Below, piece by piece: positions 4,746 to 42,985 of a stretch of 64,000 nucleotides of DNA; positions within the stretch are counted from its first letter, which is position 1; every line of letters begins with the position of its first letter. Both the position numbers and the translations under genes were made by a program. Below the pieces are notes generated by a model that had not been told where the DNA came from, did not search any database, and was given only the letters and a program-made list of their open reading frames with translations. The DNA is from Nemertoderma westbladi (lineage: Eukaryota; Animalia; Xenacoelomorpha), in contig JAUCBJ010000091.1 in the NCBI GenBank assembly GCA_032718475.1, forward strand, positions 1 to 64,000, given 5' to 3'.

Positions 4746-5994
4746 TGTAAAAGCCTTTGCTGAATTGCCCCGTTATTTTTATTATCTTTTACATTAAAAT
4801 ACTCTGTAGTTGATTTAATAAGTGTAAGAGACCGTATTATTGCTGTATCGGTGTTTTTAGAGGATCTAAGACCTATTTCCTCCGTATGTGTACTGTGAAA
4901 GGCATATTTTATGAATCTATGGCAATTCGTGACGCAAAGGGGTGATAGCTACTCTTGAACAGTAGTTACTATGACTACGGTTAACAGCTGACATTCATAC
5001 GTGTTGATTTCCTTTGTTCTACGGCGTCTCTCAGTTCAGTCAGCCAATTAGAGCGTTTTTGTGGCTCCTTGTACAGAAAATTTCCGAGAAATGACGCAAT
5101 GCCTATGTGCAGTGTTTACATTCAGTCCTGAGCCAAAGAAAGAACGGCTTGGAAGTATTTTGTGCTTTACTGTTTTTTAGTCTTACACTAGTAGGTTTAA
5201 TTATAAAGGGCATATATCCTTTAACCTAACGACTACCTGACTCATGGAATCACCTGCTAACTGATCATACATACTGACTGCTGAAACATTGCAAACTCAT
5301 AACAATCAGTGTTTTCATTGTTGTTTTATACTGCTATTTACCGTCAGTTCTTCATAATATGGTTGATGAATAATTATATTTGGAATAACGATAAATATCC
5401 CCGAAACCCAATATTCTTGATATACCGAAGGTAAGAGAGAAGGGTTACAGATAAACGATTGTGACTTATGTTAAAGTGGTTTGAAGTGAATCTAATGTTA
5501 TTTGATAGACCCTACATGAGTCAGTCTGTGTTCCTTTTATATGTGACTAAAATCAGTGAAGATTGGCAGATTAGTGTGCAGTATTGTGCAGCATTGTGTA
5601 TGAGTGAGTCTGTTAAAGAAGCAATTCCTAAAGAATGCGCCATATATGTGAATTATAATTAAGCCATATCGTTGTGAGTAGTTTAAGTCATAACTCTGTT
5701 TATATAGATAAAGCGCCACGTCCTAAAGGAACTGTTAATATTACCGAAGGTGAATAATATTGTCAGAGATTATATAGTACTGTCAGTCGAATAATACATT
5801 AGGCTTACATAGCAATAAAATTAAACCGTCGAACCCAATCTCCCGGGAATATCCAGCGGGTGAATGGTCGCGCACGGATTGGTTTCGACTAGTGTAGTGA
5901 ATCAAATACTTGTCATAGACTAAAAACTGATTTAATATCTAGAAGACATCTTAATTTGGTGGGTTAAACTGCCAAAGGTCTGAAAGCGCGAACA
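4746..5994 (+). repeat. 3' LTR of subfamily B copy 1 (1249 bp)
   Basis: TG...CA ends; homologous to 23206-24472; preceded by TCCCATTTTCTGGGAGCGG as in the other 3' LTRs. Confidence 0.93.
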
Positions 5995-7160: not shown

Positions 7161-8894
7161 ATGTCCTTTACTAAACTCGACTCAAAAGATCTTCAAAAAG
7201 GGCGCGAGGAGCCCAAGAAACAATCTCGTTTGGAATGGAAACAGCAGAAAGAGTTGGAAGAGGCTCGGAAAGCGGGTACCGCGCCTGCAGAAGTGGACGA
7301 ATTCGGCCACGACATCAACCCACACATCCCCCATTACATAGTCAGCTCGCCGTGGTACCTCCAAGCAAATGGGCCCACATTAGAGCACCAACGTGCTTTC
7401 AAAACCGCACAACGACAGCGACCCACCGCAGTCTCAGAAGAGATAGTAAAAACTGGCTACCTTCCCGGAGGGAGCGCTACTAAATACCGCAAGGGGGCGT
7501 GCGATAACTGCGGCGCGATGACTCACAAAAAGAAAGATTGTCTGGAGCGTCCGAGGAAGGTTGGGGCGCGGTACACCGGTTCGTTTATAATGCCGGACGA
7601 GCGAGTACTTCCGTCGCAATCGTTTACGTTCGATGGGAAACGCGACAGGTGGTGCGGCTACAACGCAGCCGATTACAAGGCCGTCATAGAGGAACACGAG
7701 AAGGTCGAACTCGCTAAGAAACAGCTGAAATCGAAGCAACTCGAGGAAGAGTTGGTGCGAAGTGACGTCACAGTTAGTGATGACGTCGACGACGACAAAT
7801 ACGCCGACCACGCCGATATGCCAGGGCAGAAGTTCGACTCGAAGATTCGGATCACCGTTCGGAACCTGCGGATACGGGAGGACACCGCCAAGTACCTGAG
7901 GAATCTCGGGGATGGTTCGGCGCATTACGACCCCAAGACGCGCGCGATGCGAGAGAACCCGTACGAGGAGAGCGGTAGGGAGAAGGGCGACTTGGATTAC
8001 GCGGGTGATAACTTCGTGCGGTACTCCGGTACTACTCGGCAGATGGGGCGCGCGCAGTTATTCGCGTGGGAGGCGGCCGAGCGGGGCGTCGACGTTCACA
8101 TGGAGGGGGAGCCGACCCGAACCGCAATGGCCTTGCGGGAGTTCGAGGGGAGAGCCGGCCGCGCGGAAGAGGAGCGTAGAGAGCGAATCGTGGGGAAGTA
8201 CGGGGAATTAGGGGTGGAAGGGGAGCGCGGATTGCTGTTGGGACAGACGGAAGAGTACAGGGAGTACAGCAGGAGTGGGGCCGTGATAAAGGGAAGGGAT
8301 GTTGTTAAAGCGAAGTCGCGTTACGAGGAGGACGTTTACGTGAACAATCACAGTTCGGTTTGGGGTTCCTACTGGACAGGGTGTCTGTGGGGCTACCGGT
8401 GTTGCAGGTCGACCGTGAGGAACTCTTACTGCGTGGGGGGCAGTGCTATGGAGCCGGAACTGCCCCCTGGGGGGTTGGGGGAAGGAGGGGGGGTGACTGA
8501 GGAGGGGGGGTCCCAGGGGATAGTAGTCGGGGAGAACGATCCAGGAGGGGACAACACCGAGGATAAACCAAAGTCATTATTGGAACTTCATAAGCAGAAG
8601 TTATTAAACTTAAAAAAACAGAGTAAAAAAAGGAAAGTTAGCGGATCGTCGTCTAGTGATTCAGATTCGCCAAGTTGCAATAAGAAACTCCACAAGGGAG
8701 ACATTGAATCGGCGTTGCTACGACACGACATGGAGACCCGCAGAACGGAGGAGATAATCTCGATGGACGAGAGACAACGTCCATATAACTCTATGTACGA
8801 AACCCACCAACCCACACAGGCAGAACTCGAAGTGTTTCGGTTGAAGAGACACCAAAAGGAGGATCCTATGTTTAAATTATTAGATAATAAATAA
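7161..8894 (+). CDS. SLU7: Pre-mRNA splicing factor SLU7 (intronless)
   Basis: Motifs ELEEARKAGTAPAEVDE..INPHIP, KGACDNCGAMTHKKKDCLERPRK, VRNLRIREDTAKYL, SRYEEDVYVNNHSSVWGSYW. Confidence 0.97.
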   Translation: MSFTKLDSKDLQKGREEPKKQSRLEWKQQKELEEARKAGTAPAEVDEFGHDINPHIPHYIVSSPWYLQANGPTLEHQRAFKTAQRQRPTAVSEEIVKTGYLPGGSATKYRKGACDNCGAMTHKKKDCLERPRKVGARYTGSFIMPDERVLPSQSFTFDGKRDRWCGYNAADYKAVIEEHEKVELAKKQLKSKQLEEELVRSDVTVSDDVDDDKYADHADMPGQKFDSKIRITVRNLRIREDTAKYLRNLGDGSAHYDPKTRAMRENPYEESGREKGDLDYAGDNFVRYSGTTRQMGRAQLFAWEAAERGVDVHMEGEPTRTAMALREFEGRAGRAEEERRERIVGKYGELGVEGERGLLLGQTEEYREYSRSGAVIKGRDVVKAKSRYEEDVYVNNHSSVWGSYWTGCLWGYRCCRSTVRNSYCVGGSAMEPELPPGGLGEGGGVTEEGGSQGIVVGENDPGGDNTEDKPKSLLELHKQKLLNLKKQSKKRKVSGSSSSDSDSPSCNKKLHKGDIESALLRHDMETRRTEEIISMDERQRPYNSMYETHQPTQAELEVFRLKRHQKEDPMFKLLDNK

Positions 8895-9766
8895 AATCAT
8901 TGTTTATATGTTTTAACAACCATGAGATTGTATAAATTATTAAATAATTCAAACAGGACTTAGGATTCAATCCCCGCTGGTGGCGAATTCATTTTTTCCG
9001 CTCCATTTGCTATAGAGTTGGATCATCATTGTTTAATGTTTGTTTATATAACTTTGGGGGGAATATAATAATTATTAGATATCCAACAGTAAAGTTTACA
9101 AATTCTATACTATTAATTATAAATTTTATTCTATAATTTTAATTCTTAATTTGAAATTCTACAATCGAGGTTTTCAAATGAAACATATGTCATATTTGCA
9201 CTTCATTGTTCACTTTTATTTCTATTCCAACTACGCTTTAAGGGTATTCTTAATTCCAAAACTCGTGATATTGAGTATTATATTTATTTCTAATAGGATT
9301 AAAATTATTTAAAATACACTATACGTCATAGGCCTACTCAACTAAATAAATATACATATATATTTTTCTTTTTTTTCTATTTTTTATGTCTTGATGGTTG
9401 CTATGCATTGATTCACTTAGCATTAAACGCGTAATCTAATAATATCCTCAATTTTTTAACATAAGTAAATCTGAGCATACCTAACCTAACCGTAATCCTA
9501 AATAGACCTGAGCTAATTACGACAGAAACATCGCATATAAGTAATTAAACTATCTCTAGTTTGCTTGCAGGTTTTATCAAAACTAAAAGAGCCAATATGA
9601 GTAACTCAGTACTTTACTACGATTATTTTTACTAGAGCCCCTTGGAGCTGAACCTAAAATTGGTTAATATCTATTTATTAAATGGGAAACAATATAGATC
9701 GCGAAATTAGAGAAATAAGCTATTCATTTTTCAAATAATGGGCCTACCTAATTTTATTTCAGAAGA

Positions 9767-12171
9767 TTGCCTTTTCCACCTCCCCCTATTGCTTTCCCCA
9801 CCTCCCCCCTATTGCCTTTTCCACCCCCCCCCCCCCCCCCCCATTGCCTTTTCCACCTCCCCTATTGCATTTTCCACCCCCCCCCCCCTCCCCTATTGTA
9901 GGGATACCAAGAACTCGCCCCACTATGTGGCTCGCCCCAGCAGTGTAGTCATACCATGGATTCGCCTTACTACGTGGCTCGCCCCAGAACACAGACATTA
10001 CTTTCAGACATTAATCCGCTCAGTACTGTAGCACGTAGCCTACTTATGCACCTTGTCTGCATGATACCAGTACAGCACTGCAGTCTCTTGGTATTATATG
10101 TAGCACTGGTCGGTCAGATCTATTTCGGCATTTCCGCTCATCCCGCCCGGTCCCCTCATATCGCATATCCTTACACCTATTGCCTTTTCCACCTCCCCCC
10201 TATTGCCTTTTCCACCTCCCCTATTGCCTTTTCCACTCCCCCTATTGCCTTTTCCACCTCCCCCTTTTGCCTTTTCCACCTCCCCCCTATTGCCTTTCCA
10301 CCTCCCCCTATTGCCTTTTCCACCTCCGCCTATTGCCTTTTCCACCTCCCCTATTGCCTTTCCCACCTCCCCCATTGCCTTTTCCACTTACCCTATTGCC
10401 TTTTCCACCTCCCCCTATTGCATTTTCCCCCTCCCCCTATTGCCTTTTCCCCCTCCCCCTATTGCCTTTTCCACCTCCCCTATTGCCTTTTCCTCCTCCC
10501 CCTATTGCCTTTTCCACCTCCCCCTATTGCCTTTTCCACCTCCCCCTATTGCCTTTTCCACCTCCCCCTTTTGCCTTTTCCACCTCCCCCTTTTGCCTTT
10601 TCCACCTCCCCCCTATTGCCTTTCCACCTCCCCCTATTGCCTTTTCCACCTCCGCCTATTGCCTTTTCCACCTCCCCTATTGCCTTTTCCACCTACCCTA
10701 TTGCCTTTTCCACCTCCCCCTATTGCCTTTTCCACCTCCCCCTATTGCCTTTTCCACCACCCCCCTATTGCCTTTCCACCTCCCCGTATTGCCTTTTCCA
10801 CCTCCCCGCATTGCCTTTTCCACCTCCCCCTATTGCCTTTTCCACCTCCCCCATTGCCTTTTCCACCTCCCCTATTGCCTTTTCCACCCACCCTATTGCC
10901 TTTTCCACCTCCCCCTATTGCCTTTTCCACCTCCCCCTATTGCCTTTTCCACCTCCCCCCCCCTATTGCCTTTCCACCTCCCCGTATTGCCTTTTCCACC
11001 TCCCCGCATTGCCTTTTCCACCTACCCTATTGCCTTTTCCACCTCCCCCTATTGCCTTTTCCACCTGCCCTATTGCCTTTTCCACCTCCCCCTATTGCCT
11101 TTTCCACCTCCCCCTATTGCCTTTTCCACCTCCCCCTATTGCCTTTTCCACCTCCCCCTATTGCCTTTTCCACCTCCCCCTATTGCCTTTTCCACCTCCC
11201 CCCTATTGCCTTTCCACCTCCCCGTATTGCCTTTTCCACCTCCCCGCATTGCCTTTTCCACCTCCCCCTATTGCCTTTTCCACCTCCCCCTATTGCCCTT
11301 TCCACCTCCCCCTATTGCCCTTTCCACCTCCCCCTATTGCCTTTTCCACCTCCCTCTATTGCCTTTTCCACCTCCCCCATTGCCTTTTCCACTTCCCCTA
11401 TTGCCTTTTCCACCTACCCTATTGCCTTTTCAACCTCCCCCTATTGCCTTTTCCACCTCCCCCTATTGCCTTTTCCACCTCCCCCCTATTGCCTTTCCAC
11501 CTCCCCGTATTGCCTTTTCCACCTCCCCGCATTGCCTTTTCCACCTCCCCCTATTGCCTTTTCCACCTCCCCCTATTGCCCTTTCCACCTCCCCCTATTG
11601 CCTTTTCCACCTACCCTATTGCCTTTTCCACCCCCCCCCCCCCCCCCCTATTGCCTTTTCCACCTACCCTATTGCCTTTTCCACCTCCCCCTATTGCCTT
11701 TTCCACCTCCCCCTATTGCCTTTTCCACCTCCCCCTATTGCCTTTTCCCACCTCCCCCCTATTGCCTTTCCACCTCCCCGTATTGCCTTTTCCACCTCCC
11801 CGCATTGCCTTTTCCACCTCCCCCTATTGCCTTTTCCACCTCCCCCTATTGCCCTTTCCACCTCCCCCTATTGCCCTTTCCACCTCCCCCTATTGCCTTT
11901 TCCACCTCCCTCTATTGCCTTTTCCACCTCCCCCTATTGCCTTTTCCACCTCCCCCTATTGCCTTTTCCACCTCCCCCCTATTGCCTTTCCACCTCCCCG
12001 TATTGCCTTTTCCACCTCCCCGCATTGCCTTTTCCACCTCCCCCTATTGCCTTTTCCACCTCCCCCTATTGCCCTTTCCACCTCCCCCTATTGCCTTTTC
12101 CACCTCCCCCTATTGCCTTTTCCACCTCCCCCTATTGCCTTTCCACCTCCCCGTATTGCCTTTTCCACCTC
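9767..12171. repeat. C/T-rich minisatellite, about 22-bp unit TATTGCCTTTTCCACCTCCCCC
   Basis: Directly visible tandem array with variable C-run length and recurring variants (CCCGTATT, CCCGCATT). Confidence 0.97.
9897..10175. mobile_element. Solo LTR (279 bp) of an unrelated LTR element inserted in the minisatellite
   Basis: Ends TGTAGGGATA...TATCCTTACA (inverted, 1 mismatch), flanked by the 5-bp duplication CCTAT (9892-9896, 10176-10180). Confidence 0.8.
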
Positions 12172-12890
12172 ACTTTGCTCACCTTAAATATTGTACCAAA
12201 CAGCAGTGGTAAGATTCCGGGGTAACCATGTGTATTCATATAAACTTTGATTTTAGAAGGTTTGTAGTACCGGTAGACGTTGGCATTTCTGATGTACAGT
12301 ATAATACAGGGGTGGGATGCCCGATATACGATGCCCAAATACCAGAAATTAAACGAAATACTGTTACAATTATAATTATACTATGACTTGGTATATAATA
12401 TTCTCATATTGGCTTCCGACACACACTCACACTGACACCTACACGGACAGACTTGGAAAACGGCCATAGTATAATAATTTATTTAACTGACGACATGCCA
12501 ACTTTAGGGCGTTCATATTTACTTAATTGGATAATGGTAAATAGCCTGATTTGTTTTATACAGGGTACCTAGCAACGCCAACTGCCAACAGCTGGATTAA
12601 ATAGCAGTTGCCCTTAAAACAACTAGAGTCACTATTTCGGAAGCCCTTAAAACAACTAGAGGCACTATCCGGTAACACAGGGCCAGTGACCGAACAAACA
12701 AGCAGCAGTTAAATTGACTAACACTGTGGGGCAAGCCACGAAAGTGAGCGTGCTTAGAATACGGGTACCAATCTCAACCTCTCGTCTGTCTAACGTCTGC
12801 CTGTCGTTGGTTAGTCGCTCCGTCTACTCTTTGAATGCTAGTACAGTACAGTAACTCAGCGAATCTTTGATGGAATTATACCAAACGTAG

Positions 12891-14067
12891 TGTAAAAGCT
12901 TTTGCGTAATTAACCGGTTATTTTCCCGTAAAGTACTCTGTAGTTGGTTTACCAGGCATAAAAAGGCCGTGTCCTTACTGTACTGGTGTTTTAGAGGACA
13001 TAAAAGTCATTTCTTCTGTATTTGTACTTTAGAGGACATAATCCGCAATCTCGTGACGCAATAAGCTAGATACTCTTGAAAACAGTGTCGCTACCATGAC
13101 GACGGCTAACAGCTGATATTGCCACGTCGACATTTCTTTGTTTCTTTGTTCTCTCGTTGTTCGGTCGACCAATCAGAGCGTTTTTTGTCTCTGTGTTGGA
13201 GGTGGATACAGAAACTCAGTAGTTCAGTGTTATGTTTTTGCCCAGAGCCTAAGAACACCGGCTTTTGGCACCTCCGTGTTTCAGTCTTTAGCTTAACATT
13301 AGTAGGCTTAATTATAGAGTGTATATCTGTTATCATACCAAAACTCAGTTATCTCAGTTAATAATCATAACATATCAAAACAAACCGCATCATTCATACC
13401 TTAACTTTACTGCTTTTACTGTCGGTTATTCATTATATTTGTTGATGAAATATTATATCGGAATACTGATCAATAGTCAGACACCCAACCTTCTTGATAT
13501 ACTAAAGGTTAGAGAGACCGGTTACAGATAAACGATTGCGACCTATGTTAAGTGGTTTGAAGTGAATCTAATGCTATTTCATAGGCCCGACATAAATTGT
13601 ATGTTGCTCTCTTTATACGTGACCAAATTTAGTGAAGGTCGGCAGATTAGTGTGCAGTATTGTGCAGCATTGTGTATGATTGTAACTGATAACAAAGCAT
13701 CTCCTAAAGAATGCGCCATATACATAACTCTATAGCCTTTTTGTTGTGTCTAGTTTAAGTCATAACTCTGTTTACATATTTAGAGCGCCACGTCCTAAAG
13801 GAACTGTTAATATTTCCCGAAAGTGAATAATATTTGTCAGAGATTATATATTACGATCAGTCGAATAATACGGTAGGCTTACACCATCAATCATTAAGCT
13901 TCCGAATTCAGTCTCCCGGGTATATCCAGCGGGTGAATGATTGCGCATAGACTGGCTTCGGCTAATGTAGTGTATCAAATACTCGTCATAGGCTAAAGAC
14001 TATATATCATCTAAAAGACATCCTAATTTGGCAGGTTAAACTGTCAAAGGTCTTAAAAGCGCAAACA
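12891..14067 (+). repeat. 5' LTR of element A
   Basis: TGTAAAAGC...GCGCAAACA; direct repeat of 42986-44162. Confidence 0.97.
13167..13178 (+). promoter_or_regulatory. CCAAT box in LTR U3
   Basis: GACCAATCAGAG in A; AGCCAATGAGAG at the homologous position in B. Confidence 0.55.
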
Positions 14068-14105
14068 ATAACAGATATTGCTTCTGGATTGCGGCGTAAG
14101 CAATC
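13283..14105 (+). ncRNA. Large structured cis-RNA in LTR R/U5 plus PBS (putative self-priming module, possible ribozyme)
   Basis: Many helices with compensatory changes between the A and B LTRs (see findings). Confidence 0.75.
14068..14078 (+). promoter_or_regulatory. Non-tRNA primer-binding site complementary to LTR 13323-13333
   Basis: ATAACAGATAT directly abuts the LTR end; its exact reverse complement ATATCTGTTAT is at 13323-13333; no TGG tRNA-type PBS. Confidence 0.85.
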
Positions 14106-14356: not shown

Positions 14357-14934
14357 CAGATTGTACAGATAATTTGTAGGCTTGACTGTTGGCTAACTGT
14401 TGTTAAGTCTGAACAGATTGCAGTGTGTGTAGAGCATCTGTCCGATAAAGTGCTAGTTAGGAAAGTAGGGGCTTCAAGTGCTGTGAGGTAAACCCCCTGT
14501 GAAAGAATAAGTCGTACTACTGGGTTAGAATGCATACTAACTAATCATTTCGGAGTCTGCATATACTGTAGTGTATTTGGGCTTGATAGTAGTCTGCCAT
14601 CGTTTGGTCTGTACTTTGTTTGTGTAGTCTGTACGGGTAGCGTATAATTTTATTTAGATAATTTGTAGGCTGGATAGTTGTTTGGCTGTTGTTGGGTTTG
14701 AGGAAATTTCGGTGTGTGTAGAGCATCTGTCCGATAAAGTGCTAAGTTAGGAAAGTAGGGGCTTCAAGTGCTGTGAGGTAAACCCCCTGTGAAAGAATAA
14801 GTCGTACTACTGGGTTAGAACGCATACTAACTAATCATTTCGGAGTCTGCATATACCGTAGTTTGTTTAGGCTTGATAGTAGTCTGTCAGTATTTGGTCT
14901 GCATTTTGTTTGAATAGTCTGTACGCGTAGCGTA
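14357..14934 (+). repeat. Two tandem copies (period about 289 bp) of a structured 5' leader module
   Basis: Direct repeat 14367-14644 / 14656-14934; also duplicated in B at 24740-25301. Confidence 0.85.
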
Positions 14935-16282
14935 ATATTTATTATTCAGAGTTTATGCGATTATTCGCAACATTCATTCCCCAAGTTTATTCCTACAGTA
15001 ATTGTGTTTGTTATACATACCGTTATAGTTAAACTAACCCCGGTACTACATCAGGGCTGCTCGGCGTAGGTAAAGACTGGAGATTTTATGCTTTGGTCAC
15101 TCCGGCAGATACCGTGGTTCTTTTAGCTGTTCAAGTATTTTTAACTACCGATTATTTGTTGTACAAGTACTTGTACCTAATTTAGGGTTTAGTGTACAGT
15201 ACTTTCCGAAGGTGATTAGTGTGTAGGCAGTGTATTTGTGTTGTAAAGTGGTTAATAGGCACGTTGGTTCTGGTAGACCGCGGTAATTAATCTCTAGGTA
15301 GGAACACTCCGTGATACATAACGTAGTACCTATAGCGATACGGTTATAGGTCGTCAGGCGGTGGTATTTTCCTATCTGGACAACGCAGTATATTTACTAC
15401 TACTTATTATTTTCAAATACCGTAGTAACCTGTCCGTTGTAATAACCAGATATTCTAACCCTTTGTTAGGCTGGTTAGTAGACTTCTTGTAAAAATACCC
15501 TAAAAAATTTGTATTTGTGTATTTGTAATTAAATTTTTGTGTTTATTTAGAGATTGTAATCTCTACCCGAATTGTACGTAACTTGTAGTATTAAGTAACT
15601 TAGGTAAATTAGAATTATTTGTTTTAGTGTCTAACAAGTAGCACTCCACTGAGAGCGCACAGCTTATGTGTAGTGACTCCCCCAGAAATAATAACATTTA
15701 TTTCAAACATTGACAAAAACCCATTTCAACGGGTATATATATATTATAAATCAACTCAAACGATTTATAAATAGTAGGCCTGCCATACAACAATTAGGTC
15801 TCAATATCAGTTGGACTACTGCTTAAATAACAGTAATAAAGTAAGTTAAAGTAACCAAGTAACCCTTAAAATTCAGAAATTCAATTATTTAAAATAATTG
15901 ATATACCGGTATTTACAATAGGCTTACTATCTTTATTTTTATAAATATAGGCTGAAATTATACCGGTATTCTGTAATTAATTCTAGTCTGTAATTGTACT
16001 TGTATTTTCACATTATAAGTGTAAGCTGTATACCGGTATTCAAGATAGGCCTATTATATATATAAACTTAGGCTGAAATAATACCGGTATTCTGCAATTA
16101 ATTCTAGTTACTAATAATACTTATATATACTATAAGCATACCGGTATTCTAATATTATATATATATCACGCTACACTGAGTAGCAGTATCGGTAATTAAT
16201 TACTAGGTTAGCAGTTAATGCTGAATTACTAGACTTGCTTAGACTGTAATATAGCAGTAGGCATTCAACTGTGTAAACAAAC

Positions 16283-19200
16283 ATGTCTGATACTAAGCAG
16301 AACCTGTCAGACAGTTTATTAGATGCAACTATCTGCGACTCAGATAAGGGTGTAGAACCGTCTACACCTAAGTTCAGTTCACCTCCCACTGTGAGGAAGG
16401 TCATCCCTCCAGTAGTAATAACAGAACCTAGGCTGGTCCAACATCGTAGGTCTATCATAGGCACTCGAGCTCAGGTCAAACGGGACCAAGAAGCAGCGGA
16501 ACAGCAACAACCCACGAGCCAAGAACTTATTTCTCAGCGGCCCGACAGCTCCAGTAGTGAGGATCTTGTAGAGCTGACACCCGAGCGCGGAGCAAAGATG
16601 ACGGATGCGGTTTATTCGGATCCCCTTCTCATCCTGCCTGCAGCCGTACTCACTAGGATATTGATCGCGGTGGAAGAACACCAGATCGATTGGGCGAGAA
16701 GTCAGCAATCAACTAAAGATAGTTATGCGGGATACACAAAGGAAGAACTGAAATCTATTGTCGAGTCGCAATGGAACTTCCCCGGACCCGGACTCCCGTT
16801 TGATTTATCAGAAGCTGCCTGGGAAGACATACACCGGATGGGAGTAGCCAAAGAAACCATCGATCCAGCTGTGTGGAAGAGGTCCGCAGCCGGATACGCA
16901 CAGGGATTCTTCAGCTCTATGGAGCGACTAAAATAACAACTGTTTCAACAACCACAAGGACCTCAAGAGCAGGGACAACTGCTTTATCAAGTTAGAGAAA
17001 GAATTCTGCGAATCAAGCTAATCTTATCGGCCTTTGAAGAGGCTTCTAAAAGAAGACAAGACACGTCGTTGCAAGTTGCCGTAAAGACTTGGTTTCAGCG
17101 GGTGAGTCTCCAGGTTCAAGGAACGGCTCAGTGGAAAGCTCAGCTAGAGGAGCGCTCAACCCATGGAGAATCAACAGACGCTACTTTTTCCCAAGTGGAA
17201 AGTGAAGCGACGGCAGAGAACCCGCATAAGAGGGATGCCATTGATATCTATCTGTCAGACTATCAACGTTTCTTAGGTGATGAAGAGTTGAGGAGAAGGT
17301 TGGATGGACTTAACCCTAATAGTGAAGGAGCACAGCGTGTGCTGGATGCCATCGACGTGGATAGGTTAGCGGCGAACCAAGCTAAATTCGATGAACAACT
17401 CCGCATCGCTAGAGTCCAAGAAGAACAGGTGAAGAAAAAACGTATAGAAGACAGAAAGAAAGCAACAGTAGCAGCTGCGGAAGCGGAAAGGAAAGCAGCC
17501 GAAGAGGAAAGTAAAGCAGCCGAAATGGAAAGAAAAGCGGCAGTGGCAGCGGCAGCGGCAGCGGCAGAGGCAGAAGCGAAAAGAAAAGCAGCTGAAATGG
17601 AAAGAAAAGTGGCAATGGCAGCGGCAGAAGCAGAGCGGATAGCGGCTGAAGAGATCGCCCAATTAGAATTGGAAAATATTCAGGAGAATCAAGACTGCAT
17701 AAATAAACAGTTAACAGCTAGTAATATGCAGATGATAAATCGATCTACTCCCAAAAGACAGGGATATACATCATCTGAGGAAGGCGATACCACCGATACT
17801 GAAGGCAAAGGAAATAGATCTCACCTAAGCAGACGTAAAAGAACATCCCACCGTCAGAAATTGCCTGATTTGCCTCCAGCTGTTAGAAGGCAACTAAATA
17901 ACACCAACTTGGGTAGTACAGAACCCACAGACCAAATAATTACAATAGAAAGACTCCCTACTATAGTAGATGAGCCTGAAATAATTAGGCCTGTTCTCGA
18001 AGCCACCCTTTCAGTGGTAGAGACACCTGTACTCCCTGAACCTACCTCTAAATTCCCTTTGCACAGTACCAAGCTACCTGTGCCCAGCAGAACAGCCCAT
18101 GAGACAGTTCATGCCCTGGACCCCGAGCGAAATATTCATGATTTGTCGCCCGTTGTCCCTCGTCCGCCCGCTACAACGTTGGCGAATCCCGCTTCGGCGG
18201 TCGAATGGGTGGATGAGAGACGACGGGGGATGGATCTCCTGCTCGGACAGATGCAGGAGACTGTTCAGCAATTCAAGGGCACAGTAAGGGAAAGTAGGTT
18301 AGAGTTGCAAGAAGTGCAGCAAAGTATCGCGCTAGAACGCGATAAATTAGTAAATACACAAAAGGGTATACCACCACCCCCTGTAACAATGTGTCAACCT
18401 GTTAGGTCTGAAGTATCTCATGCGCAAGGTGTGGACCCTACACGCATCTATACTGCTAGCGAAGTAGAAACTCCTATAGTGAACCCTATTAAGGGTAATT
18501 ATAGACCTGTTGATAATGATATTCCCTATAGACCGGATCATAATCCGAGAAATTTATATACCGATAACTCGATATTAAATAACACGATGGCCCAAGAAAG
18601 TTTTACGCGTCAAATGGCTAGAACCGAAGCCCGGCAAGCGGTAAAGGTGGGAGAGATCGTCAAGTTCAATGGAGATGAGATGAAATGGTTACCTTTTAAT
18701 GAATATTACAAAGATAACATACAGAACTCTGTACTATCTAATGGAGAGAAACTTAGATTCCTCATCGAGTGCTTGGAAGGATCTCCCAAGTTAATGGCGT
18801 TAAAGTTTATTGGACATCCAGATGGATTAAGACAAGTTTGGGATACACTAAACATCAGGTATGGTAATAGGAATAACATAGCTGGGTATTTGTATGCAAA
18901 GTTGGTAGCGCCCCGAAAGTTTATTAGCAGCGGGATTATAGAGTTTTCCGATGAGATTCAGGAGATCTGCAGACAATTAGATTGGCTAGGTAAGTCTCAT
19001 GAGTATCAGAGTGCTATGGTTATTAGAGCAGTGGCTTCTACTTTACCGAAGGGTGGAGTAGGTACACGCTGGGATAAGAAAGTGTTATATATGATGGAAC
19101 AACAACGACGAGACCCTACCATGGCTGATCTCATGTCATTCCTAGATGGAGAAGTGAAATTACAGCTCCTAAAACTGTCCAGAGAGAAGACCCCGGAAAA

Positions 19201-19726
19201 CAAGGTAAGTGAAAAACCCGTCTCTAGGAGAAAGGTAACACCGGTGTGTTATACAGACGACGGCGAAAACCAGACTTCTCAAGGAGAAGATAGCGGGAAA
19301 GACACTGACAGATCTTATTATGTCAATAAAATGCCTAAAGATCAGGTAAGTAAATTCAAGTCTCGAACTAATGACAGGAGAGAACAGGTAAGAAAAACTC
19401 CTCCTACGTCTCCCAAGAGAATTCAGGTGAGAAAGCCCGAAGAAAAAACAAGTGTGCACAATGTTACGCAAAATAAGGTAAGTAACATCAAACCGAAATG
19501 TGCGCTATGTGATGGGACCCATCGCTTGAATACGTGTGATGAATTCCTAAAGAAATCATTAACTGAGAGACGTGAAGTCATGTGGGATAAGCGGTTGTGT
19601 TATAATTGCCTCAGACAAGGACACCAACGGCGAACCTGTTACTCTGACACAAGATGTGCCAAGTGCGGTGCGAAACATCATGTCTTGTTGCACACTGAAT
19701 TCGGCGAAATAGTCCGAGTCAGGTAA
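16283..19726 (+). CDS. Gag of element A (in-frame TAA at 16934-16936, then frameshift relative to pol near 19705)
   Basis: ORFs 16283..16936 and 17069..19726 are in the same frame and colinear with B Gag; KFNGDEMKWLPF (DUF1759-type capsid region) and three Cys-His boxes. Confidence 0.88.
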
Positions 19727-19857
19727 GTGATTCCAAATTACATGTCCAATTCAGTGATGTGAATGACACTGATCAATCTGAGATGGAAGGATTCTATACG
19801 GACGAGTTCTCCGACGAAAACGAATCCTATTACATGATAAATACCACAGTGTATTGA

Positions 19858-22800
19858 GCACTCACGTATGAAAAGGATACGGACAGCGACCTTACCCTAG
19901 CTACTTCTGATCAACAACCATTTTGGAAAGCGCCAACTTCCAATGTAGGGATTAGAGAATTTCCTGTGGTACAGGTAAGGGTCCACGGACCAAAAAGGAA
20001 TTATGTAGTGAACGCCCTCCTTGACTCCGGTAGTACAGGAACATTCATCGACAAAGAGCTAGCCGAAGACATATTTGCTGGACAACCCAAGTTCCGAACT
20101 AAGCTAAACATGTCAGGAATTATGCAGGTTTGGAAATCTACAGTAACAGCGGATTATTATGTAGGTGCGTTGTCCACCCCCCAGGATGAACTAGGAGAAC
20201 ATAGCATAAGGTCAGTGAAAATGGTGGCTATAAAGAACTTCGCTACTACTCAAGCAGACCTTTATAATTGGGACGAGGATGAGAGCATCCAACATCTTAA
20301 GATACCTCGATTCCAGACTGATTATCCTGGAGTGCAAATACTCATCGGCCAAAACGCGCATGAGGCGCTCGAGACACTGGAGAAACGGCCTGCTCAACCG
20401 CAGCCACTACAAACCTATGCGGTAAGAACTAGAGTAGGTTGGTACTTTACTGGCCCTTCCCGTAGAACTCTCATGGAAAGATTACCGAAAGATCAGGTAT
20501 ATCAAGTGCGAGAATGGGAAGTTGAGAACAGTGAGTTCGACGATCCAACTGAGGGAACTCCATACTCCTCAGACAACGACGATATACATCAACTTTTCGA
20601 TGAGGAGAATGCCATCGATCTCCTTAAGGAAAGCGAGACTTGGCAAAATCAAGTGAACTTATGTCAACTCCTTCTCCCATCCGAGCGAGACGACTATAAC
20701 GACGAGCTTAATGACGTCATTGAACGTTATAATGCCAAGACTCGGGATGAACACGCCGTAAGATTCTTTACTCAAGAGGTTGTAGAGCCCAACTCCTACG
20801 ATAAGGCCCTATCGGTGGAGGAAGAAAGAGCCAAGCAGATCCAAGCGACAACTACTCGTTTTCTTAAAGATCAAGGTAGATATGAGATCGGTCTTCCTTT
20901 CCGAAAGCGAGAACCAAAGTTCATTAACAACAGACCTTTGGCGGAGAAAAGAATTGCTCAACTACATCGACGCCTTACGGCAAATTCTTCAGCTAAAGAA
21001 ATGTATCAAACGCAGTTGAAGAAGTTTATTAGTAAGGGATATGCGGAGCTAGTACCGGAAGAAACACCTATAACTGAGAGAACGTATTATTTAACTCACC
21101 ATTACGTTCCCAAACCCGGTAAACCCCATGAAGTACGAGTGGTGTTTGACGGTTCCGCCCTTTATATGGGCCAATCTCTTAATTCTGAATTGTTACCCGG
21201 ACCCAACTTACTAGAATCCTTGTTCGGAATACTATTAAGATTAAGACAATATTCCATTGCTTTCGCCTCAGATATAGAAGGCATGTTCTTACAAGTCAAA
21301 GCGCTGGATAGGGATCGAGATAGCCTACGATTTTTGTGGTGGCCTGAAGGAGACCTCAACAAGAAACCGGTGGAGTACTGGATGACCATCCAAGCCTTTG
21401 GGATAATCTCGAGCCCTTCAAACGCCTGTTCCGTGGTGCGCACCACTGCGGATGACAACCGAGACGCCTTCTCTAAAGAGGTGATCGACAATATCAAACG
21501 AAACATCTACATGGACGATAATCTGAAGTCCCTTCCATCAGTCGAAGAAGCCACTGCGGTCGCTGAAGGAACGGTAGAATGCTTAAAGAAAGGTGGATTT
21601 CGATTAACTAAATTCACTAGCAACTCCCGTGAGTTTCTGGAGTCGATCCCGGTAGAAGATCGAGGAGCAAAAGACCTAGATCTAATAAAGGATGATCTCC
21701 CAGAAACTAAGACCCTTGGTTTGAAATGGGACACAGAAAGAGATATCCTGTTTTTCCAATTAAAACAGCGAGATAATCCAGTTCGGACTAAACGGATTTG
21801 TTTAAGTATCCTGAGCACTTATTTCGATCCATTGGGATTTATTAGCCCAGTTATATTGATTGCTCGGAGTTTAGTACAACAAATGTGGCTTGAAAACCAC
21901 TCATGGGACGATCCACTTAAGGGAGAATTATTAAAGAAGTGGATGAAATGGGAAGATTCTCTACCAGCCATCGAAAACTTTATAATTTCCCGTTCATATT
22001 TTGGTCATGTTCTCCCTACGTATTCATATCAACTCCATGTGTTTGGAGACGCCAGCGATATGGGAATAGGTATAGTAGCCTACCTAAGGGTGGAAACTCC
22101 GGACGGAATCAAAGTCGCCTTGATTACCTCTAAGGCATTGATAAACAACAAGTTGAAGGTTCCTCGAGCGGAGTTAAAAGCGGCTCTATACGCTACAGCC
22201 ATCGGCCGGAATGTAACAGAACAGATCGACTATCCCCTGGAGAAAACTGTCTATTGGACCGACGCTTTACTCGTGTTGGAGTATATAACCAATGAAGTCT
22301 GTCAGTTCAGCGTCTTCGTTACCAACAGAGTAGCTATTATACTCAGTCGCACGACGATGGATCAATGGAGACATTGCCCCGGAACGATTAATCCAGCGGA
22401 CATCGCTTCCAGGGGAGCAACTCCACAAGAACTGGTAGATACTCCAGACTGGTTAGGTGGACCCGACTTCCTCTACAAAGAAGAAGAAGAATGGCCTCCT
22501 CATCTTACTACAGCAGAAATTAGACAGGCCAAGGGAGCGGAGAAAGTCAAGCCTAAAACTCAGGCGAGTAAATCGAAGTTATTCAAACCCACAGTAGATC
22601 TGTCTGTCCTACATACTTCCGGAGACGACGCTTTGGATCAGAAACCCACAGCCACAAATAAACCCGTTGTGGAAATCCGTGATAAGGATTGGAAATCTGG
22701 CATACCAGACGTCTCGCAAGGACTCTCACCTCTTCTGCAGAGAGCGATACATCACTACAGTTCCTGGAATCGGCTCTGTAAGGCCGTTACATATTTAAAG

Positions 22801-23205
22801 AGATGTTTTCACCATCACTACTCTGGGATGAAAACAAAGGGTGATACCGCTCCAATCACATCAGTGCAGGTCCATGTTATTAAAGATCTTCCCAAACATA
22901 AGATACCCGACAGGTTTCTGAAGGAGAAGATCAGTTATCAGGAGCATGAAGAAACCAACAAACAGATGCTGAGACTCTTACAATGCTATGAAGATTCCGA
23001 TAAGTATTTCCTGTTGTTGAGAAATCCACAGATGCGCTTAAGGGATCGTTTCTCTAGCACAAGGATAGATGGGTTGATACGTGTTGGAGGAAGGTTAACG
23101 AATGCCCCATTATCCTTTGATACTAAGTTCCCCATACTCATTAGAAATCTTGAAATACAAGTCAAGATGATTGTAGATGTTCACAGCAAACTTTATCATG
23201 CTGGT
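19858..23205 (+). CDS. Pol of element A: protease, reverse transcriptase, RNase H, start of integrase (interrupted by nested element)
   Basis: ALLDSGS; VRVVFDGS, SLNSELLPGPNL, DIEGMFLQV, YMDD; FDPLG, FGDAS, VPRAEL, WTD, NPADIASRG. Confidence 0.95.
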
Positions 23206-24472
23206 TGTAAAAGCCTTTGCTGAATTGCCCCGTTATTTTTATTATCTTTTACATTAAAATACTCTGTAGTTGATTTAATAAGTGTAAGAGACCGTATTAT
23301 TGCTGTATCGGTGTTTTTAGAGGATCTAAGACCTATTTCCTCCGTATGTGTACTGTGAAAGGCATATTTTATGATTCTATGGCAATTCGTGATGCAAAAG
23401 GGTGATAGCTACTCTTGAACAGTAGTTACTATGACTACGGTTAACAGCTGACATTCATACGTGTTGATTTCCTTTGTTCTACGGCGTCTCTCAGTTCAGT
23501 CAGCCAATGAGAGCGTTTTTGTGGCTCCTTGTACAGAAAATTTCCGAGAAATGACGCAATGCCTATGTGCAGTGTTTACATTCAGTCTTGAGCCAAATAA
23601 AGAACGGCTTGGAAGTATTTTTTGTGCTGTACTGCTTTTTAGTCGTACACTAGTAGGTTTAATTATAAAGGGCATATATCCTTTAACTGTAAATATCTCA
23701 CTGCTGCAATTTAACATACCTAACGAATACTGCTGACTGATGATCATACATGCTGACTGCTGAAACATTGCAAACTCATAACAATCAGTGTTCAGTAGTT
23801 ATTTTATACTGCTATTTACCGTCAGTTCTTCATAATATGGTTGATGAATTATTATATTTGGAATAACGATAAACAACCCCGAAACCCAATGTTCTTGATA
23901 TACCGAAGGTAAGAGAGAAGGGTTACAGATAAACGATTGTGACTTATGTTAAAGTGGTTTGAAGTGAATCTAATGTTATTTGATAGACCCTACATGAGTC
24001 AGCCTGTGTTCCTTTTATATGTGACTAAAATCAGTGAAGACTGGCAGATTAGTGTGCAGTATTGTGCAGCATTGTGTATGAGTGAGTCTGTTAAAGAAGC
24101 ATTCCTAAAGAATGCGCCATATATGTGAATTATAATTAAGCCATATCGTTGTGAGTAGTTTAAGTCATAACTCTGTTTATATAGATAAAGCGCCATGTCC
24201 TAAAGGAACTGTTAATATTACCGAAGGTGAATAATATTGTCAGAGATTATATAGTACTGTCAGTCGAATAATACATTAGGCTTACATAGCAATAAAAATT
24301 AAACCGTCGAACCCAATCTCCCGGGAATATCCAGCGGGTGAATGGTCGCGCACGGATTGGTTTCGACTAGTGTAGTGAATCAAATACTTGTCATAGACTA
24401 AAAGCAGATTTAATATCTAGAAGACATCTTAATTTGGTGGGTTAAACTGCCAAAGGTCTGAAAGCGCGAACA
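23206..24472 (+). repeat. 5' LTR of B copy 2 (1267 bp)
   Basis: TGTAAAAGCC...GCGCGAACA; matches 4746-5994 and 34402-35048. Confidence 0.95.
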
Positions 24473-24484
24473 TTAAAGGATATA
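24473..24484 (+). promoter_or_regulatory. Non-tRNA primer-binding site complementary to LTR 23675-23686
   Basis: TTAAAGGATATA versus TATATCCTTTAA, 12/12 complementary. Confidence 0.85.
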
Positions 24485-26627
24485 GCTTCTTTATTGCAGT
24501 AAGCAATAAAGTCGAAAGTACCGGTCGACCGGTAACCAGTAGGCCTGACTGCCTGATCATCCGGACCGGTACCTACAGCAGTATTATTCGATTTTGATTG
24601 TTATATACCAGTAGGCCTTAATAATTAATCAGGGACGGCCGCCCTGATTTTTTATTGAGATTTTACTTATTTCTGTCAAGATTTATTTGTTTGTAGGCCA
24701 GTATTGAACAGAAGGCGTGTAAACCTGATCAGATTGTACAGACAATTTGTAGGCTGAGCTGTTGTCTGATTGCTGTTAAGTCCGAACGAATTGCAGTGTG
24801 TGTAGAGCACTTGTCCGATTAAGTACGGTTAGGAAGTAGGGGCAGCCACGCTGTAAGGTAAACCCCCGACTAAAGAATAAGTCGCACTACTGGGTTAGAG
24901 CGCATACTCCCTAATCATTTCGGAGTCTGCATATACCGTAGTTTATTTAGGCTTGAGAGTAGTCTGCCATCGTTTAGTCTGTACTTTGTTTGTGTAAGTC
25001 TGTACGGGTAGCGTATAATTTTATTTAAATAATTTGTAGGCTGGATAGTTGTCTGGCTGTTATTAAGTCTGAACGGATTGCCGCGTGTGTAGATCATCTG
25101 TCCGATTAAGTACGATTAGGCAGTAGGGGCAGCAACGCTGTAAGGTAAACCCCCAACTAAAGAATAAGTCGCACTACTGGGTTAGAGCGCATACTCCCTA
25201 ATCATTTCGGAGTCTGCATATACCGTAGTTTGTTTAGGCTTGATAGTAGTCTGTCAGTGTTCGGTCTGTATTTTGTTTGAGTAGTTTGTACGCGTAGCGT
25301 AATATTTATTATTCAGAGTTTATGCGATTATTCGCAACATTCAAGTCCCTAAGTTTGTTCCTACAGTAATTGTGTTTGTTATACATACCGTTATAGTTAA
25401 ATTAACCCCGGTACTACACGGGCTGCTCGGCGTAGGTAAAGACTGGTGATTTTGTGCATCGGTCACTCCAGCAGATGCCGTGGTTCTTTTAGCTGTTCAA
25501 GTATATTTAATTACTGATTATCTGTTATACAAGTACTCGTACCTAATTTAGGGTTTAGTGTATGGTACTTTCCGAAGTAATCATTGTAGGCATTATATTT
25601 GTGTTGTAAAGTGGTTGATAGGCACATTCGATTAGCTCTATTAACTTCTAGGTAGGAACACTCCGTGATACATAACGTAGAACCTATAGCGATACGGCTA
25701 TAGGTCGTCAGGAGGTGGTATTTTCCTATCTAGACAACGCAGTGTATTTACTACTACTTATTATTTCAAATACCGTAGTACCCTGTCCGCTGTAATAACC
25801 GGTTTTCTAACCCTTTGTTAGGCTGGTTTGTAGACTTCTTGTAAAATTACCCTAAAAATTCGTATTTGTGTTTTTGTAAGATTTTGTGTTTATTTAGAGA
25901 TTGTAATCTCAACCCAAATTGTACGTAATTTGTAGTATTAAGTAACTTAGGTAAATTAGTATTATTTGTTTTAGTGTCCTGTACGTAACACTTCACTGAA
26001 AGCGCACCGCTTTGTGTAGTGATTACCCCCAGAAATAATAACATTTATTTCAAACATTGACAAAACCCATTAAAACGGGTATATATATATTATAAATCAA
26101 ATCTAACGATTTATAAATCGTAGGCCTACCATACAACCATTAGGCCTCAATATCAGTTGGATTACTGCTCAAATAACGGTAATAAAGTAAGTAAAGTAAC
26201 CAAGTAACCCTAAAGTAACAGAAATTCAATTATTTGAAATAATTGATATACCGGTATTTACGATAGGCCTATTATCTTTATTTCTATAAATCTAGGCTGA
26301 AATTATACCGGTACTTGTAATTAATTCTATTTCAGAATTATATATCCTACAAACTGTAAGCTGTATACCGGTATTCAGATAGGCCTATTATATATTTATA
26401 TATATTTGTGCTAAAATTATACCGGTATTCTGTGATAAACCTAGTCTGTAATAATACTTATATAGTTATATATACTATAAGTATACCGGTATTCTAATAT
26501 ATTATATATATCACGCTATACTGAGTAGCAGTACCGGTAATTAATTACTAGACTAGCAGGTAATACTGAGTTACTAGACTTACTCAGACTGTAATACAGC
26601 AGTAGACATTCAACGGTATACATAGTC

Positions 26628-34401: not shown

Positions 34402-35048
34402 TGTAAAAGCCTTTGCTGAATTGCCCCGTTATTTTTATTATCTTTTACATTAAAATACTCTGTAGTTGATTTAATAAGTGTAAGAGACCGTATTATTGCT
34501 GTATCGGTGTTTTTAGAGGATCTAAGACCTATTTCCTCCGTATGTGTACTGTGAAAGGCATATTTTATGATTCTATGGCAATTCGTGATGCAAAAGGGTG
34601 ATAGCTACTCTTGAACAGTAGTTACTATGACTACGGTTAACAGCTGACATTCATACGTGTTGATTTCCTTTGTTCTACGGCGTCTCTCAGTTCAGTCAGC
34701 CAATGAGAGCGTTTTTGTGGCTCCTTGTACAGAAAATTTCCGAGAAATGACGCAATGCCTATGTGCAGTGTTTACATTCAGTCTTGAGCCAAAGAAAGAA
34801 CGGCTTGGAAGTATTTTTTGTGCTGTACTGCTTTTTAGTCGTACACTAGTAGGTTTAATTATAAAGGGCATATATCCTTTAACTGTAAATATCTCACTGC
34901 TGCAATTTAACATACCTAACGACTACTGCTGACTGATGATCATACATGCTGACTGCTGAAACATTGCAAACTCATAACAATCAGTGTTCAGTAGTTATTT
35001 TATACTGCTATTTACCGTCAGTTCTTCATAATATGGTTGATGAATTAT
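34402..35048 (+). repeat. Truncated 3' LTR of B copy 2
   Basis: Matches the first 647 bp of 23206-24472, then switches to A pol sequence. Confidence 0.93.
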
Positions 35049-41600: not shown

Positions 41601-42907
41601 AGTCAGTTCAAAGACCACGCTCTGACCAAACTCAGCCTGAGAGACTCAGCGGCGGAGAAGCTAAACAGCGCGGGATTTGCCCTTTTTCAGGACATTTGTA
41701 TACAGAACTTACATTCATCTGTTATACAAAGACCCCGAATACCCACGGGTTATTCTGTCGTCGAAGTTCAGACAGTGGGTCCTCTTGCGGAGACAGCCGC
41801 ACCTACCTCAGCTATGCAATTGGAAGACGAACCAATATGCTTAGAAGCTGAAGCGATTCAACCTACAGCGCCCCGGAGCAGCGATAACGACTACGTCTTA
41901 GAGTGGTATCAAGGTCCACAATGTCTCACTGCATACGATTATCGACACGCTAACTATGTTTCTCGAAAACGTTGTCGATTATGCGCATTGAGAGACCATT
42001 TCACCCCTATGGACTCAGACGTACCCTGCTCCTATTTCCACGAACAACCGATGATGGAGATATATTGTGCGTATTGCAGACTTAATAACTCTCATATTTT
42101 TGCAGTCTGCCCCCAATTTATGACTCAATGCCACCACTGTCAACTTAAAGGACATGCCAGTTATAATTGCCCCTTTAATCACGATTTAGAGAGCGTAGAT
42201 GAAATGATTACCCTGCGCTACATCCGAGCTTGGGAAGCGAACGCGGATTTACATTGTGAGTCCCGTCATCGATACTACCCTGGACGCTCTTACGAGGGAG
42301 TTTACGCGTTCCATCCTTATTTATTAGCGTCTGTGGAACAAAAAACACGCATACCGAGTTACGAGCTAATGAAGCGTGTTGGTGAGTGTATTTCCACCAA
42401 ATTTGTTCGAAGATATCTTAGGAACGTCAACCCGATCCTAACGATATTACTTCATACCATTTGATCAATTATATCCGTCAAGACCCTGAGTATGGTGATT
42501 TATTTATCAACTCGCACCCTGAGTTACAGGAAGTATCTCGACGGCCCTACGAATATCGAGCCCGAGAACGCGAGCTGGAAAGAACTATTAAACCAAGGAA
42601 GTTTCTCACCACTCACGGTCCACCTACCGCCGTTGTCCAGACGACCCGTCAAGGACCAGTAGGAGCTGCTGTCCTAAGACGCGCCTTAAAGGCCGTTAGA
42701 CCTCGCTCCGCTGAAGTTGATATCGATCAACCAGGTACCTCGACCGGCGGATACACCGATCGCAATCCGAAACCTTCTGATGCAATTGTATTGCACCCTT
42801 CACCCAGGAGTTACAGCCCTCCTAGTAAAGTGGCTCGCCCCAAAGAGAAATGGACTCTTGCTAGCCTCAAAAAACTGCGTAAACGCCGTCCGCGTAAGAA
42901 AGACTAA
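38649..42907 (+). CDS. Accessory protein: DEDD-like (WRN/EXD/Mut-7-type) 3'-5' exonuclease domain plus CCHC zinc fingers and basic tail; probable 1-nt frameshift near 42420
   Basis: VVTYDNEG (ExoI), LFNEGILKIGSAVYGD (ExoII), FVDTQ, SIGHLA, LAIYTIFE (ExoIII-like); CAYCRLNNSHIFAVC and CHHCQLKGHASYNC. ORF 42461..42907 is open in the -1 frame from 42422. Confidence 0.72.
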
Positions 42908-42985
42908 CTGTTTAGAGTATTTTTATAATTTAGAAACTGTGATTTGTTATATTTTATAGACTTAAATCCCATTTTCTGGGAGCGG

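Follow-up and report, generated by a model that had tools for sequence, protein, structure and literature searches.

Introduction

The closest described system for priming reverse transcription without a tRNA is that of the LTR retrotransposon Tf1, in which the first 11 bases pair with the primer-binding site (PBS); cleavage by RNase H falls between base 11 and base 12 (PMC7175516). The replication of BEL/Pao elements is called poorly understood and is described as primed by host tRNA, and the ICTV profile of the group lists a PBS of 18 nt that matches a host tRNA, with LTR lengths of 0.2-1.2 kb (PMC8742986); the main text of PMC3118150 makes no mention of a primer, a PBS, or a tRNA. Titles and the opening lines of abstracts, in a coverage lying mostly outside subscription journals and outside the Repbase notes, held no account of BEL/Pao self-priming or of a large LTR RNA structure. 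Two further systems resemble parts of the locus described here. LTR elements of bdelloid rotifers carry an ORF3 for a DEDDy exonuclease, for which the authors propose possible processing of retrotransposon RNA 3′ ends (PMC5408684), and retrozymes carry hammerhead ribozymes within plant LTRs (PMC4918200).

We analyzed animal DNA in a window (the whole stretch of 64,000 nt under study) that contains nested BEL/Pao LTR retrotransposons, here termed element A and family B. Like Tf1 and Tf2 of Schizosaccharomyces pombe, Tj1, and the Tf1/sushi group, as far as the consulted parts of these sources describe them (PMC7175516, PMC4600332), element A lacks a tRNA site, carries in its LTR an 11-nt complement of the PBS, shows RNA structure about the junction, and has an RNase H at its disposal. 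Unlike the Tf1/sushi elements, which are Ty3/gypsy, element A is BEL/Pao, and, in contrast to Tf1, its primer apparently sits ~40 nt into the transcript, after three additional long-range helices and 734 nt from the LTR end, a pseudoknot lies beside the PBS, and there is an extra ORF with a probable exonuclease. This extra ORF, with its probable DEDD 3′-5′ exonuclease, recalls the rotifer elements, but the latter are not described as self-priming in the consulted parts of PMC5408684, and the ORF of element A is much longer and has zinc knuckles. With the retrozymes, element A shares a structured RNA within the LTR; however, it has no hammerhead, is coding, and needs a cut that forms a 3′-OH. 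Overall, we conclude that the LTRs of element A and family B appear, from their sequences, to represent a variant of Tf1-type self-priming in BEL/Pao. The reading we favor, tRNA-free self-priming in which the internal primer is clamped and a protein makes its 3′ end, has in our estimate a probability of about 0.6.

Element A and Family B Are Nested BEL/Pao Retrotransposons

The features of the two families are collected in Table 1. The LTR pair of element A differs at 3 of 1177 bases. Element A has a DUF1759 Gag with Cys-His knuckles, the order protease, RT, RNase H, and integrase, Pao-type domains, TG..CA LTRs, a polypurine tract, and a 5-bp target-site duplication, which, together with Peptidase_A17 and DUF5641, likens it to the Belpaoviridae (Sinbad/Suzu-type elements of marine invertebrates); the Pfam domains found in the window are DUF1759, Peptidase_A17, Integrase_H2C2, and DUF5641. 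The DAS motif of RNase H is named for Sinbad (PMC554778). Pol is of the BEL/Pao type and not of the Ty3/gypsy type that characterizes the Tf1/sushi lineage, and the RT-RNase H region is 38-44% identical to cnidarian, echinoderm, and mollusc elements among the best 120 of 714 matches. What departs from the ICTV profile of the Belpaoviridae is the PBS, which in A and B is not of the tRNA type, and LTR length, which at 1177-1267 nt reaches or exceeds the upper limit. Querying with Pol yielded no relative among viral contigs, and DNA patterns from the conserved LTR core had no match in viral or metagenome contigs.

Several observations describe the state of these elements and their surroundings. 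An exact 773-bp duplication (22433-23205 and 35048-35820) flanks the nested B element, the 3′ LTR of which is cut at 35048; this represents either recombination or an assembly fault. The gag-pol frame of element A (16283-19858) contains a stop at ~16936, and the frame is broken near 19726-19858. Most of RT and the exonuclease part of the extra ORF are missing from both B copies (26628-31592). In both families, the 2.2-kb 5′ leader contains a tandem duplication of ~290 nt (14367-14950 and 24740-25317). Upstream of element A lies a ~2.4-kb array of 22-bp C/T-rich tandem repeats (9766-12180), and a broken non-LTR retrotransposon with endonuclease and RT pieces lies at 45996-48734. Host genes for Slu7, an XRCC4-like protein, and a PWI/RRM (RBM26-like) protein are located at 7161-8894, 49469-50449, and 53903-56617, each as one long ORF and apparently intronless; Slu7 is at most ~50% identical to that of any animal among the matches listed, which come from many phyla.

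Table 1. Coordinates of the features of element A, family B, and the element A LTR RNA. Compensatory, one-sided, and broken refer to changes between A and copy B2.
Feature	Position	Strand	Remarks
Element A (BEL/Pao)	12891-44162	+	5-bp target duplication on both sides
Element A 5′ LTR	12891-14067	+	1177 nt; TG...CA; 99.7% identity to 42986-44162
Element A 3′ LTR	42986-44162	+	
Purine-rich tract upstream of the element A 3′ LTR	42978-42985	+	
Nested family B element, 5′ LTR	23206-24472	+	comparison copy B2
Other family B element, 3′ LTR	4746-5994	+	copy B1
Cut family B LTR	34402-35048		
Element A protease, RT (YMDD), RNase H (DAS motif) frame	19858-23223	+	resumes past the nested B element
Continuation of the element A Pol frame, integrase	35044-37008	+	
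Extra ORF (ORF2)	38649-42464	+	1271 aa; probable DEDD-type 3′-5′ exonuclease domain, then zinc knuckles
CCAAT box	13169-13173	+	motif scan; present in B too; putative promoter role
Initiator-like pyrimidine run/TCAGT	13279-13285	+	putative transcription start A13283 = first base of P1
5′ strands of clamp helices P1, P2, P3	13283-13312	+	
P1	13285:13999	+	9 bp; 2 compensatory, 2 one-sided; 3′ strand in 13991-14001
P2	13296:13968	+	7 bp; 1 compensatory; 3′ strand 13962-13968
P3	13305:13900	+	8 bp; 1 compensatory, 1 one-sided; 3′ strand 13893-13900
P3alt, 5′ strand	13304-13326	+	pairs with 13718-13738; kept with different letters in B
Candidate self-primer	13323-13333	+	11/11 Watson-Crick with the PBS in A and B; B2 23676-23686
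Free A/C-rich linker 3′ of the primer	13334-13407	+	42% A/B identity; ~40-120 nt across copies; putative cut/trim site
Branched stem domain H4-H12	13408-13659	+	2 compensatory, several one-sided; some C-A mismatches in A
H4	13408:13659	+	6 bp; invariant
H5	13419:13645	+	9 bp; 1 compensatory, 2 one-sided, 1 broken
Conserved core	13660-13890	+	85% identity; GCGCCA and CCTAAAG each occur twice; scant pairing support
3′ hairpin domain	13902-13961	+	large bulge holds pseudoknot strand 13941-13946; pairs kept in host variants
3′ hairpin	13902:13961	+	13 bp; 2 compensatory, 2 one-sided, 1 mismatch
Pseudoknot helix	13941-13946:14059-14064	+	6 bp; one U-A to C-G compensatory change
Terminal U5 hairpin	14027:14048	+	8 bp; 3 one-sided
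Non-tRNA PBS	14068-14078	+	directly after the LTR end; B2 24473-24483
Post-PBS hairpin	14087:14105	+	6 bp; 1 compensatory

The PBS Is Complementary to a Segment of the LTR

No TGG follows the 5′ LTR of element A until 14085, and none occurs within 60 nt of that of family B; judged by the TGG at the LTR end, neither family has a PBS for the 3′ end of a host tRNA. A search with ARAGORN returned no tRNA. Instead, in both families the sequence that directly follows the LTR pairs with a segment inside it (Table 1). The two families differ at three positions of this duplex, and all three differences are compensated. The pairing ends exactly at the LTR boundary, and family B has 12 pairs at the matching place. 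Such a match occurred in 51 and 59 of 20000 shuffled LTRs, i.e. with a chance of ~0.3% per family. The primer pairs were counted from the coordinates, because the mafft alignment (A1) misregisters the primer, shifting it by 2 nt. As in Tf1-type elements, the RNA of the element itself thus contains, within the LTR, the complement of the PBS, and this holds in two families. We conclude that the candidate self-primer is well supported by sequence comparison. The initial annotation had proposed that RNA structure in the LTR probably positions or generates a self-primer, and the positioning is supported by the compensated primer:PBS duplex and by P1-P3 and a covarying pseudoknot, which surround the junction.

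It is highly improbable that splicing out an LTR-internal intron builds the primer. One GT..AG joint in element A (13329 to 14034) would provide 10 pairs at an offset of 1, but family B lacks such a joint, reaching 8 pairs at best, the contiguous primer is already perfect in both families, and the base that follows it is C and not a GT donor. We rejected this candidate, as the 10-pair joint occurs in element A alone and the primer is not followed by a donor.

Promoter-like Motifs Suggest an RNA Start Upstream of the Primer

The CCAAT box and the initiator-like TCAGT suggest that the RNA starts at 13283, which would be 40 nt upstream of the primer; at the initiator place, family B has a pyrimidine run followed by A, and the exact motif is absent. 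AATAAA is absent from the LTR of element A. Were the RNA to start at 13323, only the 3′ LTR copy could form P1-P3, and these helices would not clamp the primer. A start at ~13323, with the first 11 bases acting as the primer as in plain Tf1-type priming, is unlikely. The 11-nt primer does have the length of that of Tf1, and the internal complement in distant BEL loci (see below) begins at an initiator-like A, but the pyrimidine-run/initiator pattern of those relatives is found at 13283, where P1 begins, and not at 13323. With a start at ~13323, P1-P3, the alternative helix P3alt, and the core would act in the 3′ LTR copy (in 3′-end formation, packaging, or strand transfer) or as DNA sites for transcription factors, a role that we consider equally unlikely. 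The twice-repeated GCGCCA and CCTAAAG do resemble binding sites; however, the pseudoknot and the post-PBS hairpin flank the PBS, which is present only after the 5′ LTR.

We further considered that the primer is a separate short RNA, transcribed from the upstream initiator, running from ~13283 into the linker, and trimmed by the exonuclease, that the genomic RNA comes from a second, downstream promoter, and that P1-P3 anneal in trans. BEL elements of the Cer7 type in Caenorhabditis elegans reportedly use an element-encoded primer RNA, and the ~25 extra clamp pairs would suit an intermolecular duplex. There is a TATA-like element at 13313-13318 (an exact TATAAA at 23664 in B) followed by TCAGT at 13345 and 13354 in A; these downstream initiator-like motifs, however, lie in the unconserved linker and are absent at the aligned place in B, and the TATA-like bases double as a strand of P3alt. 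We regard a primer supplied in trans as quite unlikely and retain the clamped internal primer as our preferred reading.

Long-range Helices in the LTR Covary between the Two Families

The LTR comparison rests on element A, copies B1 and B2, variant tables of four host contig runs, and 79 distant loci. Every helix strand quoted in the initial annotation is located in element A at the position it gave, each with the family B counterpart it named. In a set of 22 helices picked by hand from both families on the + strand, 107 of the 139 pairs are unchanged between A and B2, 10 show compensatory changes, 17 show one-sided changes, and 5 are broken. The 278 cells of these helices contain 37 G-U and 4 C-A pairs, a count that is biased because the helices were chosen on the + strand. 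Because the helices were hand-picked, we added a blind test, in which the 12 best greedy, non-overlapping perfect helices were compared with those from 100 class-preserving column shuffles. As a result, 7 compensatory pairs were found against 1.65 ± 1.09 in the shuffles, of which the maximum was 5 and none of the 100 reached 7. The reverse strand gave 5 compensatory pairs, as expected for Watson-Crick swaps. One-sided changes numbered 12 on the + strand and 3 on the - strand; because 9 of the 100 shuffles reach 12, the strand argument is suggestive only, and the claim that the G-U pairs work on the + strand alone is thus favored in direction but is within reach of chance. An earlier, rougher tally of perfect helices did not clearly exceed chance.

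Folding energies were uneven across the region. The overall value is unremarkable (z -0.98), and the H4-H12 domain gives z -1.1 in A and -2.4 in B2, with the - strand similar, whereas the 3′ domain gives z -2.3 and -2.7. In the 3′ domain, all 96 of 96 cells are paired and 3 double changes occur, a number reached by 23 of 500 shuffles; this count uses three rows only and leaves the mismatched pair 13907:13956 out of the structure. Single-sequence folds of A and B disagree over much of the region. A covariance model of the 3′ domain matched only the four full LTRs of the window and none of the 79 relatives.

The covariation had been described as family-wide; it is better described as resting on two families and the B1/B2 variants. 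The host runs contain many more copies (7611 contigs aligned in run X1), from which we examined the 56 variants listed between 13459 and 14024 in two tables, a row at 13205 being left out as outside the region. Among these listed rows, 44 of 56 variants are of the B type. Seventeen fall in helices, 16 of which match family B, and 15 of the 17 can pair with the partner base of either A or B; of the remaining two, one is at the known mismatch and one is a new change that breaks P1. Taken together, we consider a multi-helix RNA scaffold in the LTR moderately supported by these sequence comparisons.

We also note that, at 13985-14001, the 3′ strand of P1 follows an invariant GTCA-TA-G, which resembles an LTR end (CA), two bases, and a PBS for the transcript's first 11 nt. 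As a speculation, P1 may be an older primer:PBS pair left in a lengthened LTR.

The Conserved Core Has Little Pairing Support

The initial annotation presented the LTR as a structured RNA of ~800 nt with invariant joining segments and a freely diverging U3 and linker. The identity between A and B is 66% in U3-like DNA, 42% in the linker, 81%, 85%, and 81% in three parts of the core, and 88% in the non-coding 5′ leader. Of the two segments said to diverge freely, the linker does so in both sequence and length (~40-120 nt). The joining segments are not special, since the 85% of the core does not exceed the 88% of the leader; set against U3, the core is conserved, but set against other parts of the element it is not. 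Nor is structure supported throughout, because ~230 nt (13660-13890) are almost without pairing support: 34 nt of this stretch fall within the chosen helices, with 2 changes, and ~13660-13895 folds no better than shuffles (z +1.3 in A and -0.3 in B). The deepest cover by contigs of the host runs is at 13762-13833, in the core. As a guess, the role of the core could be protein binding, packaging, or promoter activity. A coding role was rejected, the longest stop-free stretch in the LTR core being 100 codons with indels between A and B.

A Predicted Pseudoknot Adjoins the PBS, and an Alternative Helix Would Cover Part of the Primer

The strongest conserved perfect helix, which was absent from the initial annotation, is a pseudoknot that joins the bulge of the 3′ hairpin to the LTR end, 3 nt before the PBS (Table 1). 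At the other end of the LTR RNA, P3alt has a predicted energy of -15.4 kcal/mol in A and -21.1 kcal/mol in B1 and B2, against approximately -8 kcal/mol for P3. It covers part of the primer and excludes P3. Because P3 and P3alt are mutually exclusive, they may constitute a switch; because P3alt is the stronger of the two, the fold proposed for priming is not the predicted ground state. By eye, we further noted a possible contact between 13693-13699 and 14079-14086, beside the PBS, with 8 bp in B and 7 bp with a bulge in A, which competes with a small hairpin.

A Model for Priming with a Clamped Internal Primer

In the proposed mechanism, the long-range helices of R-U5 would fold the transcript into a scaffold that holds 13323-13333 on 14068-14078. 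With a start near 13283, the primer would be the 3′ end of a ~50-nt 5′ RNA piece. P1-P3 would tie the 5′ flank of the primer to the 3′ end of the LTR and, with ~25 bp, would keep the 5′ piece bound after cutting. The 3′-OH could arise in two ways. First, the RNase H of the element could cut at the end of the duplex, by analogy with Tf1; RNase H motifs are present in Pol. Second, a cut anywhere in the linker could be followed by trimming back to the duplex by the putative exonuclease of ORF2. Because the linker has no constraint on sequence or length, it would suit trimming or a structure-guided cut by a protein. RT would then copy U5 and R starting at 14067, and P3alt may hide the primer where no PBS follows, i.e. 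in the 3′ LTR copy. The model is precise and testable: it specifies a single primer and a single position of the cut, a clamp together with a pseudoknot, and a candidate enzyme for the trimming.

The size and pattern of the LTR RNA had initially been taken as typical of large ribozymes or RNP scaffolds. We therefore weighed the idea that the LTR RNA is a large ribozyme that hydrolyzes the bond after the primer:PBS duplex and leaves a 3′-OH, by analogy with 5′ splice-site hydrolysis by group I/II introns or with RNase P. The geometry would fit, as the guide-like duplex ends at the scissile bond with the pseudoknot 3 nt away; the ~230-nt conserved, poorly paired core receives the best cover from other families in the host runs; and the non-autonomous B copies retain it. 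However, the bases that flank the would-be cut vary freely, the identity of the core is not above that of the leader, and protein routes exist (RNase H and the probable 3′-5′ exonuclease). A hammerhead-like pattern occurs only in the variable linker of B2 and in neither A nor B1, and small self-cleaving ribozymes leave a cyclic phosphate, which is unable to prime. Searches of Rfam 15, whose described ribozymes include group I/II introns, RNase P, hammerhead, HDV-like, and twister families, also failed to bear out the ribozyme claim, with no ribozyme at the gathering score in the window or at E ≤ 10 in either LTR or the core. No family of any kind reached the gathering score, and only tmRNA, miRNA, snoRNA, CRISPR, and sRNA chance matches (E 0.12-9.3) were returned. 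We rejected a tmRNA-like match across the LTR end (E 0.12-0.52 in A) as chance because it is not repeated in B, and resemblances to core motifs of RNase P, group I, and group II seen by eye were not borne out by Rfam.

Overall, it is very unlikely that the LTR RNA acts as such a ribozyme, and just as doubtful is the fuller version of this idea, in which a large, undescribed ribozyme, the 700-nt R-U5 RNA, takes the PBS as its guide and hydrolyzes its own RNA into the 3′-OH primer of reverse transcription, and in which the P3/P3alt switch keeps it off until the PBS has been transcribed. If the RNA did make its own 3′-OH, it would represent a new class of large ribozyme in animals. The 3′ end is, in the reading we prefer, made by a protein.

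ORF2 Encodes a Probable DEDD-type Exonuclease

The candidate trimming enzyme is encoded by the extra ORF of element A, the exonuclease part of which is absent from both B copies. ORF2 had no match in Pfam and no homologue in a word-based search, and its candidate exonuclease domain had no match in the PDB. Two homologues were found among 1.84 billion representatives. The better one, P0241 (E 1.6e-6), aligned over the middle domain and the zinc knuckles; it has a faint score to Pfam DNA_pol_A_exo1 (E 0.2), and its nearest Atlas cluster carries DNA_pol_A_exo1 and zf-CCHC at 0.86, which is a lead only. Structure prediction for the ORF2 domain gave no usable fold (pLDDT 32), and a comparison of ORF2 with itself was uninformative. 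In our own reading of the sequence, E takes the place of the usual D in the last acidic motif. The assignment of ORF2 as a probable DEDD-type 3′-5′ exonuclease is an indirect one, through P0241.

Some Distant BEL/Pao Loci Have a Simpler Signature of Possible Self-priming

Searches with the LTR and ORF2 (blastn, nhmmer, and tblastn) against 79 related loci found homology to neither the LTR nor ORF2. In a quick tree, with 75 rows after 5 short loci were dropped, one BEL clade of 20 rows was recovered (SH-aLRT 97). The element of the window lies on a long branch outside this clade, which has sites resembling self-priming. Ten loci in the clade (L002, L006, L009, L021, L024, L031, L033, L040, L062, and L065), representing ~7 distinct elements, have, 3-5 nt past the 5′ LTR, a site not of the tRNA type, together with a 9-nt LTR-internal complement that starts at an initiator-like A. 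The complement lies 195-282 nt upstream in 8 loci and is seen in the 3′ LTR in 2. Of 15 occurrences of the 9-mer in 541,531 nt, 14 belong to the clade, and the site and its complement are the only conserved blocks of five aligned, otherwise unalignable LTRs. The sites are invariant, without covariation, near-palindromic, and similar to the T-loop/B-box of tRNA, and their duplex energies are no better than those of tRNA-primed controls. Because the sites are invariant and T-loop-like, with energies no better than the controls, priming by a tRNA fragment stays a rival for this clade. Together with element A and family B, these relatives suggest that priming without a tRNA is common among BEL/Pao elements, which have elaborated it in various ways.

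Two further sets of loci were noted. In L008, L010, L011, L036, L037, L038, and L039, there is no TGG after the LTR, and the internal complements are weak (6 bp in L010/L011). L047, L050, and L055 have ordinary sites of the tRNA type.
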